From: a virus
Lineage: Duplodnaviria > Heunggongvirae > Uroviricota > Caudoviricetes
Strand: one strand, 5' to 3'
Length of the DNA: 28,629 nt
IMG/VR virus record: IMGVR_UViG_2627853869_000005
Part shown: piece after piece, positions 19,901 through 25,900 of the stretch
Numbering within the stretch: the first letter of the stretch is position 1
Layout: every line of letters begins with the position of its first letter
Position numbers: made by a program

Positions 19901-22900
19901 TCAGTCTGGACAGGGCCAGCTCACGCTCTGTTTTTGTCAGGGCACTCTGCTGTTTATCATCCAGAGTGGCCTGTGGCAGCCGTAACGGCACATTCACCAG
20001 TCCCTGCCGCTGCTGAAGCAGTTCATTACCCAGCCCCAGCAGACGGTTGAATTCCGTATGCTGACCGTTCATAACCAGCATGGACTGGTACACCTTATTC
20101 TGCTCTGCCGCCTGCTGACGAATTAACGCCACACGACGGTCTTCCAGCCCGGCAAGCACATCCTGAATGGACTGCGCTTTTTCCTGCATCAGTGCCAGAC
20201 GGGACTGCTCAACGGCAAGCTGCTCTGTTGCCTGAGCAAGCCCTTCCGTTACGGTCTTCACCGAGGTCAGATGGTTTATCATGAATCCGTCACCGGTCGT
20301 CCAGCCCGGGTTCGCCAGAACATACTGATATCCTGCGATTTTTTCCTGCAGGGATTTCACCCGACTAGCCTGTTCATCAATCAGCCGGTTCTGCTCTGTC
20401 AGCGCCGCCCGTGTTCGTCCTTCATTATCTGAGGCTTCAGGCAAAGACATTGACGGCGTTTTATGCGCGATTTCATCTATCGTCAGTGCATACTGGCGTG
20501 CAGACTCCCAGGCCTGCTCCTGATTCTGGTACAGCGTGTACCATGCTGCAGCCCCCAGCATCACCAGTCCGGGTACGCCACCAACCAGCCCCAGCGCACC
20601 GCTCATCAGACGTGAGCCCACCGCCGTTGTACTGTTCAGCGCATTCTGGGCGGCGCTTCTGGCAGCAATATTTCTGTTCAGGCGTTCCTGTGTGGCCGCC
20701 AGACGGGCCTCTGCAGCAATCTGCATCTCCGTCCCGCGGGCTGCCGCCACAGCCTGCTGAGCACGGTACACGGCTGCCCTTGCCCGCGCCGTGGCAATCT
20801 GCGTTCCCCTGAACTGTGCTTCCGCCAGTGCAACTTCATTACGTGCAGCCGTCACAAGTCCTGCCGTGGCAGACATCGCTCCGGAGGCCATATTGCCAAA
20901 GTACCGGGCAACCCCGACGGCAACCAGCGCCCCCACAGCTGTTGCCACATTATCAATCTGTCCGGCAACACCGTTCAGCACGCCGGAGAGCGTTTTTGTC
21001 ACCCCGCAGGCCTCATTCACTTCGCCCACCCAGGCCATAAAGGCGTTTTCCACCTTCGTGATACTACCGGAAACCGTTTCCGGCATGGCCGCATATTCAT
21101 CACGTAATATCCCCAGCTGGCTGATTAACGCAGGGACCACTTTATCCGCTGTCAGTTTTCCGTCATCCGCCATTGCCTTCAGATCTTTACGGGCCACACC
21201 CATCCCCGCAGCAAGCGCGCGGATCACCCGGTCGCCATTTTCGTTAACAGCATTAAATTCTTCGCCACGCAGTACACCCTGTGCCAGTGCCTGGCTGAAC
21301 TGGGTGATCACCGAACCGGATTCCGCAACTCCAGCCCCTGACAGTTTCAGTCCTGTCGAAATGGCCTCCGTCACCTTCAGCACATCATCAGCACTGTAAC
21401 CATATTCACGCATCGAGGCAGCCGAACGGGCAAACAGGGCCGCATTATCCGAAAACGCGGTACCTGTTCGCTGACTGATATCCATCAGCACTTTCTGTGA
21501 TGACGAGAATTCATCCGATGACTGAGATGCCTGTTTCAGACGGGCATTCACGGAACCCCACTCATCGGCCAGCGAAATCAGGTGTCCGGTGGCAAAGGCA
21601 CCGGCAAATGCGCCAGCCATTCCGACAGCAGAACCGCGAATTTCCGTCAACTGACTGTTCAGTTCTGCAAGGGCGCGGCGCTGTTCCCGTGCGGCAGCAG
21701 CGGCATGACGTCCGCCATTCTGCAGGGTCCGGTAATATTCACTGCCCATACGGGACGCCCGCTGGATCTCCGACTGGAATGACTGTGAATTTGCCGAAAT
21801 TTTGAGTGTCGTTACGGGGAAGTCATCTTCACAGGGATCTTCGGTCAGTTAGTATTACCGACATCCATTCACCAACTTACCGGAGATAATCGATGTCAAA
21901 ACCCCGATGGACCATTGAACAGAAAAGGCAGCACGTTGCTGCCTGGCGCGCCAGTGGTCTTACACGTCAGCAATACTGTGAACTCAACGATATTCCCTTC
22001 ACATCACTTCGCGAATGGCCGCAGGATGTCGCAAAAGCTGAACGCCGGGCAAATGAACCGACCGTTCTTCCCGTTCATATTGCGCCACCACTGCATGCTG
22101 ATGTACCACAGCCCGTCACGCTCTTCCTTCCCGGTGGAGTACGGATGTGCTGTCAGCCGTCACAACTTACCGATGTCTTCAGGGCACTCAAATATGCTCA
22201 GTCCTGATAATGTCTTCATCGCAATTAAACCTGTTGACATGCGCCGGGGCATCGACTCACTGACGCAGTATATACAGGATGAACTCCGGTCGACATGGCA
22301 TGAGGGAGCCGCCTTCGTCTTTGTTAACAAAGTCCGTTCGCGTATCAAAGTTCTCCGGTGGGATAAACACGGGGTGTGGTTGTGTACCCGCCGTCTGCAC
22401 AAAGGCAGCTTCCGCTGGCCACGTGCAAATGACGCTGCCTGGCACCTCACTCCCGACGAGTTTAACTGGCTGATTGCCGGTGTTGACTGGCAGCAGGTTA
22501 AGGGACATGACCTGACGAAATGGGTCTGGCAGAATGAACCTGAACTGCGCCCTGAAAACACGAAAAATACACTGCTAACTCAGTGAAAAATAATGAATAT
22601 CCGTATCTGGAGTGGTATACTCCCCTGTATGGATATCTCCGCTCTCAACACCACGAATGACATCGAAAAACTGCGTGCTATGGCACTTGCCATGGTACAA
22701 GAAGTCATGTCGGAGAATGCCGAAAAAGAGCGGGAATTACTGGAGAAAAGCCGGCGCATCCAGCTTCTGGAAGAAATGCTGAAACTGGTTCGTCAACAGC
22801 GCTTCGGAAAAAAATGTGAAACGCTGGCTGGTATGCAACGCTCCCTATTCGAAGAGGATGTTGATGCCGATATCGCCGCGCTTACCGCACATCTGGATAA

Positions 22901-25900
22901 ACTGCTCCCGCAATCCCCTGAAGAAGATGAAAAAGCGTCCCGTTCACGCCCGATACGCAAACCCTTACCGGTTCATCTTCCACGGGTGGAAAAAATGATC
23001 CAGCCGGACACTGACCATTGCCCTGAATGTGACGAGCCGCTGCACTATATCCGCGATGCGGTGAGTGAAAAGCTGGAGTATATTCCCGCTCACTTTGTGG
23101 TGAACCGTTATGTCCGTCCGCAATACAGTTGTCCCTGTTGCCAGAAGGTGTTCAGCGGTGAAATGCCGGCACATATCCTCCCGAAAAGTGCCGTTGAGCC
23201 ATCAGTCATCGCACAGGTGATCATCAATAAATACGGTGACCACCTGCCTCTGTATCGCCAGCAACAGGTCTTTGCCCGTTCAGATGTCGGGCTGCCCGTC
23301 AGTTCGATGGCTGACATGGTTGGCGCGGCGGGTGCCGCATTATCTCCCCTGGCGGCGTTACTCCATCGCGAGTTGATAAACCGTCCGGTGGTGCATGCAG
23401 ATGAGACTACCCTGAAGATCCTGAACACGAAGAAAGGCGGTAAATCCTGCTCCGGTTATCTGTGGGCATACGTCAGTGGAGAAAGGACGGGACCGTCAGT
23501 TGTGTGCTTCGACTGCCGGACCGGACGTAGCCATGAGTATCCTGAAAACTGGCTTCAGGGCTGGGGCGGGACGCTGGTTGTCGACGGACATAAAGCTTAC
23601 CGGACTCTGGCAAACAAAGTGCCGGAGATCACGCTGGCCGGATGCTGGGCCCATGCCCGCAGGGGCTTCGCCGACCTGTATAAAATCAGTAAAGATCCAC
23701 GGGCTGCCATAGCCGTGAAGAAAATCGCGGGGTTGTACCGTCTTGAGAAGAAGATCAGTAGCCGCCCCGTGGAAAAAATCCGCCAGTGGCGACAGCGTTA
23801 TGCCCGTCCGATACTGGAAGAACTGTGGTCATGGCTTGAAGAGCAGGAACCGCAATGTTCTCCGGGAAAGGCATTACACAAAGCTATTGCCTATGCGCTG
23901 TCTCATCGCGTGGAACTGAGCCGCTTCCTGGAAGATGGTGCGGTGCCGCTGGATAATAATGTGTGTGAACGGGCCATCAAAAACGTGGTTCTGGGCAGAA
24001 AATCGTGGCTGTTCGCCGGTTCGCAGATGGCGGGAGAACGCGCCGCGCAAATAATGAGCTTGCTGGAAACCGCGAAACGCAACGGTCTGGAGCCGCATGC
24101 CTGGTTGACAGACGTCCTGATGCGTCTGCCGGAGTGGCCGGAGGAGCGACTGGCAGAGTTGCTGCCTCTTGAGGGATTTACCTTCTCCGGGTGAGTGATA
24201 CCTGCCGTCAGGTGTTCGTGCACCGGGCCATAACCTGCAGTCGGGAGTTGAACTCCTGACGGCAGGAAATGAGCCAGACCAGCAACCACGCGGGCTGACA
24301 GCGAATAAGAACCTGAATCAGCCCGGAGTCATTCCCGGGTCAGTACATCATCACCTGCAATTAATCCCCGAGTCAGTACTTCGCGGCCTGACGCGATCAC
24401 GCTACTCAGTACTTCAGAGCCCGCCTCCGGTACCTGCCTGGCGATCGCCTCTGTGCAACAAAATAAATCAACCGTTATCAAACCACGAGCGTTCGTATGC
24501 GCCGCCGATGACGCGCGCCTGAAAAACGCGTCAATATGAGTTCCCCGGAAGCTTACAATTTTGATAATCAGTTCACGTAACGTCGCCATTCACCTTTCTC
24601 CGGGCGTAAAAAAACCGCCTCAGCGGTTCTCATCATTCATGACTGTGCTGCAAAGCTCAGCGCGTCTTCCAGCGCCGCAAACGGATCCACCTCCGGCTTA
24701 TCCTCATCCTCGCCCCAGCAGAGCATGACGTCCTTCAGTGCAACATTCATCCCCTGTGCCCCGAAAACCGCTTTCACGATCTGTGCATTACGGATATCCC
24801 CGCGCTCATCACCCAGCGGGGATATCCTGTCGAACTCCATCCACATCATCGCCTCGCTCGCACTCAGGCTGTGGCGCAGTTCGGATAAGGTGCGCCCCAG
24901 ACGGAGCGCAAGTCGCATCAGAAAGCGAATTTCCGGGCGGGCTACTTTTTTCTGGCCGACTCTGCATCAGCGATCAGTTCCAGTGCCTGACGCAGCAACC
25001 GGGCATGTACCGGACCATAGACGGCCAGCACCTGCTCACGGTCGTCCGGAGTGAACACCCGCTGCAGGTCCGTATCACACAGGACATCGCAGAACAGCGT
25101 CACATCCGCTTCCAAGTTACGGCGGGTTTTCGCCACCACCGACAGGGTATCGTCATCCTCTCCATCACCATTGAGCACTTCCTGCCACAGATACCAGGCC
25201 TCTGCCGAAGGCTCCCGCAGCACCACGCTGACATTCCCCCATTCCGGCACCTTCACCGTTTTATGACGAAACCCTGACAGTCTGGCCAGCGCCAGCGTTT
25301 TCAGATCCTTTTTCATGATGACCCATCCCCTTATCCGGCAGCTGCGCTCACTGTCACGGTGCATTCAACAGACGTCACACTCTGTGCTTTCTCTGCCGAA
25401 TCGGTCACCACGCAGGTATATTTCCCCGCATCAGCGGACTGCGCACCTGGCTTACTGAAGGTGTCTGTCGTCTGCCCGTCAACCGGCTGACCATCCTTCT
25501 TCCAGGCGTATTTATACGGCGGCATTCCCCCGTTGGCACTGACTGACATTGTCAGCAGCGCACCGGTATTCACGGTAAGTGTCTTATCCAGATTTTTCAC
25601 AAACGCCAGCGGTACCACAAAGGACACCGGTTTGCCTTTCAGACGCAGTGAGAACGTTGCAGCCACCACACCGTTGGTACCGGATGACCAGGTGTGCTGA
25701 CGCACTTCCGCCAGGAATTTAGGTAATGACTCCAACTTACTGATAGTGTTTTATGTTCAGATAATGCCCGATGACCTTGTCATGCAGCTCCACCGATTTT
25801 GAGAACGACAGTGACTTCCGTCCCAGCCTTGCCAGATGTTGTCTCAGATTCAGATTATGTCGCTCAATGCGCTGAGTGTAACGCTTGCTGATAACGTGCA

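Follow-up and report, generated by a model that had tools for sequence, protein, structure and literature searches.

What does an insertion sequence (IS) leave behind when it splits a gene, and how precisely can its ends be read back? The question is raised by a stretch of 28,629 nt (IMG/VR virus record IMGVR_UViG_2627853869_000005; hereafter the window), in which the tape measure gene H of a tailed-phage remnant, encoded on the minus strand, is interrupted by an IS. An initial annotation correctly recognized the intruder as an IS66-family element, whose genes are tnpA, tnpB and tnpC. It placed the ends at 21850 and 24344, proposed a 7-bp target duplication, GGTCAGT, and gave the original H protein a length of about 1168 aa. 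We find instead a complete, ISEc49-like element of 2751 bp at 21806-24556 (plus strand), 256 bp longer than the 2495-bp span first claimed, flanked by the family-typical 8-bp duplication AATTTTGA, within an H gene that encoded 1080 aa. As an explanation of the locus as a whole, a single insertion of this element into H is assigned a probability of roughly 97%.

Both ends can be read from an uninterrupted allele. The initial annotation had suggested looking for one in related genomes, and it is present in a prophage of E. coli O157:H16 Res13-Lact-PEA12-26 (L002). The window is collinear with this prophage over 21000-21805 and 24557-25721, with 99.4-99.9% identity. By pairwise BLAST, window 21000-21805 corresponds to L002 4651-5456 and window 24557-25500 to L002 5449-6392. 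On L002 the blocks share 8 bp (5449-5456), namely the octamer AATTTTGA, which is single at the empty site and stands twice in the window, at 21798-21805 and 24557-24564. Once 21806-24564 is taken out, the window is identical to the empty site across the 60 nt compared at the junction. Intact tape measure genes likewise match a 1-kb query ending at 21849 only as far as window position 21805.

Copies of the element at unrelated positions give the same ends. Many further E. coli chromosomes and plasmids carry full-length copies that cover query positions 1-2751 exactly, and the copy in E. coli CFT073 (L001) matches at 99% over window 21806-24504 and again, beyond a nested element, over 24496-24556. 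At five other E. coli sites the ends GTGTCGTTAC...GGAAGCTTAC are bounded by perfect 8-bp duplications that differ from site to site: GCATTAAC in CFT073 (the same site being occupied in NMBU-W12E19), CTTCATTC in the F-type plasmid L007, where the copy lies between traF and trbE, CAGTAAAC at a further site, GTATGAAG in traX and AGAGAAAG in rpnC. The ends are invariant in eight copies. The left terminal inverted repeat, GTGTCGTTACGGGGAAGTCATCTTCAC (21806-21832, plus strand), is identical in seven other copies, and the right one (24530-24556, minus strand; reverse complement GTAAGCTTCCGGGGAACTCATATTGAC) starts GTAAGCT. The initial annotation had described such repeats as not obvious, but they are present, agreeing imperfectly at 19 of 27 positions. 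A 37-mer, TGAATTTGCCGAAATTTTGAGTGTCGTTACGGGGAAG, could serve as a marker for the H::ISEc49 junction.

The CFT073 copy adjoins agn43 and is itself split by another IS66-family element (L001 6671-9363) with the ends GTAACCGG...CGCTTAC and an 8-bp duplication, TATGCGCC. This is an IS within an IS, both being members of the same family.

In one further copy, that of E. coli OkiPb01697 (L011), the flanking octamers are unlike each other, as is expected after IS-mediated rearrangement. Homologous recombination between two ISEc49 copies in different prophages could similarly have joined two H fragments at a chimeric junction in the window. IS elements abound in this genome, and a neighbouring IS1 shows a rearrangement of just this kind, with no duplication and with pocR on its far side. 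However, recombination between differently sited copies would give unlike octamers, as in L011, whereas the same octamer stands on both flanks here, the flanks jointly rebuild one contiguous empty site over the 60 nt compared, and both sides are nearly identical to a single prophage, L002. Recombination was rejected as the origin of the junction on account of the shared octamer and the single rebuilt site, and we consider it very unlikely. A single transposition event is the reading retained below.

Why, then, did a different pair of ends seem to work? The observations behind them are sound: GGTCAGT does occur twice in the same phase, at 21843-21849 and 24338-24344, and removal of the intervening 2495 bp opens a minus-strand frame of 1168 aa that contains ...GDDVLTEDPCEDDFPVTT... 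and reads ...GDDVLT-EDPCEDDFPVTT... at its junction. They gave rise to a model with an IS at about 21850-24344, a 7-bp duplication and an H of about 1168 aa whose N-terminal 84-aa segment comes from 24338-24589. Both heptamers nevertheless lie inside the IS, 38 bp from its left end and 212 bp from its right end. The match to independent copies runs 44 bp and 212 bp past the proposed boundaries, and it is there that the 8-bp duplications are found, 8 bp being the length that the IS66 family gives (PMC11946415). In the IS copy of E. coli O145:H28 (L003) the left heptamer reads AGTCAGT and is therefore not conserved. The repeat is a matter of chance. When 21750-21893 (144 nt) and 24195-24589 (395 nt) were compared for shared 7-mers, shuffled sequences had a mean of 3.1 in common, and 90% of the shuffles had at least one. 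The same scan also recovers the real duplication, as AATTTTG/ATTTTGA at 24557.

The long open frame has an arithmetical cause. True excision removes 2759 bp (2751 + 8), and the deletion of 2495 bp falls short of this by 264 bp, or exactly 88 codons; the frame joins because of this difference and because the IS segments left in place, 21806-21849 and 24345-24556, contain no stop in the joined frame. Of the 264 nt behind the 88 codons foreign to H, 44 come from the left end of the IS, 212 from its right end and 8 from the surplus copy of the duplication. The 7-bp repeat and the 1168-aa protein are thus artefacts of joining two open reading frame (ORF) ends within the IS. The shorter element with its longer protein, to which we attach next to no credence, is already refuted by the uninterrupted L002 allele and by the five separate insertions elsewhere.

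Exact excision restores a single ORF, as the initial annotation had anticipated. The rejoined H has 1080 aa (MATLRELIIKISANSQSFQSEIQ...), is free of internal stops and is identical to WP_000212762.1, the protein of L002, at 1076 of 1080 residues. Its start had been correctly placed at ATG 24589: the 5' fragment (24557-24589, minus strand) supplies the start codon and codons 1-11 (MATLRELIIKI), which match the start of WP_000212762.1 and of phage tape measure proteins. The 3' fragment (18588-21805, minus strand) holds codons 12-1080 at 18588-21797, next to the duplicated 8 bp. Over positions 1-1080, rebuilt H is 97.6% identical to the tape measure region of Stx1a-converting phages and 97.2% identical to gene H of Escherichia phage JLK-2012. 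It carries the Pfam domains TMP_3, Phage_HK97_TLTM and Tape_meas_lam_C (PF20155, PF06120 and PF09718). It also lies where tape measure genes lie, between the tail chaperone genes G (24945-25316) and T (24640-24918) and the minor tail gene M (18257-18595). Aligned to phage tape measure proteins, the 1080-aa version matches from end to end, whereas the 88 extra residues of the longer version have no counterpart. At 1080 aa, neither the intact alleles nor the phage homologues include the N-terminal 84-aa segment, an outcome that the initial annotation had itself named as refuting its model.

That segment belongs to an 86-codon ORF at 24329-24589 (minus strand), which had been counted as part of H but shares only its first 11 aa with intact homologues. 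It consists of those 11 H codons followed by 75 codons from the IS right end, and it had no Pfam match. Other members of its cluster are fusions at different insertion sites. The ORF is a by-product of the insertion and not a segment of the H gene.

We infer that the insertion inactivated H, since the 1069-codon remainder has no in-frame start before Met28 (ATG 21749) and no Shine-Dalgarno motif was found ahead of that codon (upstream sequence CAGCGGGCGTCCCGT). The opposite could be imagined, in which a promoter pointing outward from the left end of the IS drives a Met28-initiated remnant with a non-phage role in Shigella, while the 2751-bp IS variant is still active. Neither half of this reading finds support: Met28 is not preceded by a ribosome-binding site, the major tail gene V is incomplete, and two sister strains have a nonsense codon in H. 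We hold the combination to be highly improbable, and H is treated here as a gene probably silenced by the insertion.

The IS itself is well preserved. Both ends and all three ORFs are intact, though tnpA has a 5-codon deletion. The tnpA gene (21893-22207, plus strand) encodes a 104-aa allele recognized by NCBIfam NF047593 (52.2 bits; cutoff 28); its product had no Pfam match. It overlaps tnpB by 14 nt. The tnpB gene (IS66 Orf2; 22194-22586, plus strand) is intact and encodes 130 aa, matching PF05717 (8.4e-35; 119 bits, cutoff 26.6) and NF033819 (114 bits), with at most two residue differences from the plasmid copy in L007. The DDE transposase gene tnpC, also intact, encodes 521 aa from the RefSeq start (22629-24194, plus strand), or 533 aa if begun at ATG 22593. 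Its product matches PF03050 (2e-90) and NF033517 (441 bits; cutoff 180), also carries zf-IS66, LZ_Tnp_IS66 and DDE_Tnp_IS66_C, differs from that of L007 at 3 of 521 residues and has no internal stops.

Compared with the CFT073 copy, the 2751 bp of the window element contain 13 substitutions and lack 15 bp of tnpA at 22114; this in-frame deletion removes 5 codons from the common 109-aa allele and accounts for an IS of 2751 bp where 2766 bp is usual. By our reading, the deleted stretch and the sequence just past the deletion point both open with GTCACG. E. coli OkiPb01697 encodes the very same 104-aa TnpA (WP_000042908.1), and the deletion may represent recurrent slippage or a transposing variant.

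Downstream of tnpC, a non-coding stretch of about 360 bp (24195-24556) completes the IS and contains an inverted repeat with 11-bp arms, CTGCCGTCAGG...CCTGACGGCAG, at 24203-24268. No Rfam match was obtained in the IS interior in a scan of the whole window, in which a cobalamin riboswitch was the sole find.

Assignment to the IS66 family is based on the TnpC catalytic domain, the presence of tnpB and tnpA, the 8-bp target duplication and inverted repeats of 20-30 bp. The family is described as having an 8-bp direct repeat and a terminal inverted repeat of 20-30 bp that begins GTAAGCG (PMC11946415), and the right end, GTAAGCT, agrees with this consensus at six of seven positions. Some points weigh against the reading proposed here. 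The left repeat begins GTGTCGT, not GTAAGCG, and the two repeats are complementary at just 19 of 27 positions; a comparable asymmetry of the ends, GTGAC versus GTAAC, has been described for the IS66-family element ISDge4 (PMC12898284). The name ISEc49 derives from annotation by the RefSeq Prokaryotic Genome Annotation Pipeline, which labels full-length copies 98-99% identical to ours 'IS66-like element ISEc49 family', and not from an ISfinder reference. Finally, any present activity of the IS and the loss of H function are both matters of inference.

The initial annotation also took the insertion to be recent, and its distribution does not bear this out. The 86-aa fusion ORF can exist only with this insertion, and exact look-up located it in many Shigella chromosomes at NCBI. 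It was seen on 715 contigs named Shigella by their sources, and many assemblies of Shigella boydii, S. dysenteriae and S. flexneri share the insertion. Among them is S. boydii Sb227 (CP000036.1), which has the same 2751-bp IS allele and differs from the window at 4 positions in 10,301 bp. All eight Shigella loci that were inspected contain the chimeric ORF and the same AATTTTGA duplication. They differ in what came later: seven of the eight carry the 2766-bp IS, the tnpA deletion being confined to the Sb227 type, and in two sister genomes (L016 and L019), unlike in the window, codon 487 of H is a nonsense codon. Such continued decay would fit a gene that was dead already.

The IS1 in gene V varies in the same way. 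In two of the loci (L013 and L018) it is flanked by a 9-bp duplication, AGGAATTTA, as a simple insertion, and head genes still follow, whereas in the window and the other six (L014-L017, L019 and L020) pocR lies on its far side, which points to an IS1-mediated rearrangement after IS1 had inserted. Because the common duplication is found in loci that differ in these events, the ISEc49 insertion predates the IS1-pocR rearrangement, the tnpA deletion and the H nonsense mutation. It is fixed in a Shigella lineage and is not demonstrably recent. Searches elsewhere returned no further carriers. No record among 5426 complete E. coli genomes covers the left junction (window 21656-21955), and matches of the type seen in L003, which begin 15 bp before the IS end, were set aside as chance extension into unrelated flank. 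Exact-match scans of GTDB species representatives, which are uninformative here, found neither the junction nor the 31-nt left end.

Around the interrupted gene, ruvC, yebC, nudB, aspS and yecD are followed in the window by the right arm of a lambda/HK97-like prophage, in which J, I, K, L, M, T and G are complete. The initial annotation had considered the tail module otherwise intact, but the 768-bp IS1 at 25722-26489 removes codons 1-109 of V, of which residues 110-238 are kept (25334-25720), and pocR stands in place of the head genes. Beyond IS1 are pocR (26476-27402; NF047788, 552 bits), a cobalamin riboswitch (27491-27665; RF00174, 103.5 bits) and an IS911-like element of the IS3 family; there are no head genes. 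Thus pocR and the riboswitch, which come from the pdu/cob region, adjoin a prophage remnant.

At the other side of the prophage, a 1450-bp IS110-family element (6483-7932) interrupts yecD between residues 73 and 74. Its 398-aa transposase (ORF 6710-7906, plus strand) matches NF033542, 'RNA-guided transposase', and this insertion shows no visible target duplication. The segments 51-904, 958-2206 and about 27.4 kb to 28629 hold an IS2 fragment, an IS1 fragment and a full IS911-like element of the IS3 family, together with a second copy of the IS911-like element that is cut by the window end. Counting the three described above, the 28.6 kb carry seven IS copies, whole or fragmentary, as is typical of Shigella. 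A gene with a tail-fibre N-terminal domain (10782-11778) matches its homologue from enterohaemorrhagic E. coli (EHEC) over residues 1-282 and then changes frame (overlapping ORFs 10924-11784 and 10371-10958), which may reflect a frameshift or a mosaic junction in collagen-like repeats. The gene nleC, present in related EHEC prophages, is absent here.

Taken together, these features support the following course. A lambda/HK97-like prophage was integrated beside yecD/aspS in a Shigella ancestor, and a full ISEc49 copy, with tnpA, tnpB and tnpC on the plus strand, transposed into its minus-strand H gene directly after codon 11. The 8-bp target AATTTTGA is duplicated, the outcome expected of the family's staggered cut and repair, and removal of the IS and one copy of the duplication recreates the 1080-aa H of intact prophages. 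The 11 promoter-proximal H codons run into 75 IS-derived codons and a stop, presumably inactivating H. ISEc49 is one of several IS elements to have struck this remnant, along with the IS1 that truncates V and joins it to pocR and the IS110-family element that splits yecD.

The biological weight of the finding is small. This is a catalogued IS in a prophage gene, inserted in the manner of its family, and such biology is already known; it adds one more IS hit to a decaying prophage in an IS-laden Shigella genome. The insertion can already be found in a genome that appeared in 2005, and hundreds of assemblies released since then carry it too. As a fixed insertion with its own 86-aa fusion ORF, it offers a handy lineage marker for the S. 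boydii, S. dysenteriae and S. flexneri group that carries it. There is also a lesson of method, namely that a short flanking repeat and an open joined frame are insufficient to define the ends of an IS, since a wrong deletion will join the frame whenever its length is off by a whole number of codons and no stop happens to lie in the IS ends.

Among known systems, the H gene is closest to those of lambdoid Stx1a phages, JLK-2012 and the L002 prophage (WP_000212762.1), with 97-99.6% identity over its full length and the same neighbours, V, G and T upstream and M, L, K, I and J downstream. Unlike in those phages and that prophage, H is here split by an IS after codon 11, and the prophage has lost the 5' portion of V along with all that lay upstream. 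The IS resembles the archetypes IS66 and IS679 (Han et al. 2001; Gourbeyre et al. 2010), as far as these are described in PMC12898284 and PMC11946415, in its three-ORF layout, in a DDE TnpC with zinc-finger and leucine-zipper regions, in its 8-bp repeats and in inverted repeats of 20-30 bp; it departs from what is described there in a left end that begins GTGT rather than GTAA and in inverted repeats that match imperfectly. It is closer still to the ISEc49 copies of CFT073, ATCC 25922 and F-type plasmids, with which it shares its termini, the 8-bp length of the target duplication, the order tnpA-tnpB-tnpC and near-identical TnpB and TnpC, and from which it differs in being 2751 bp instead of 2766 bp long through the 15-bp tnpA deletion.

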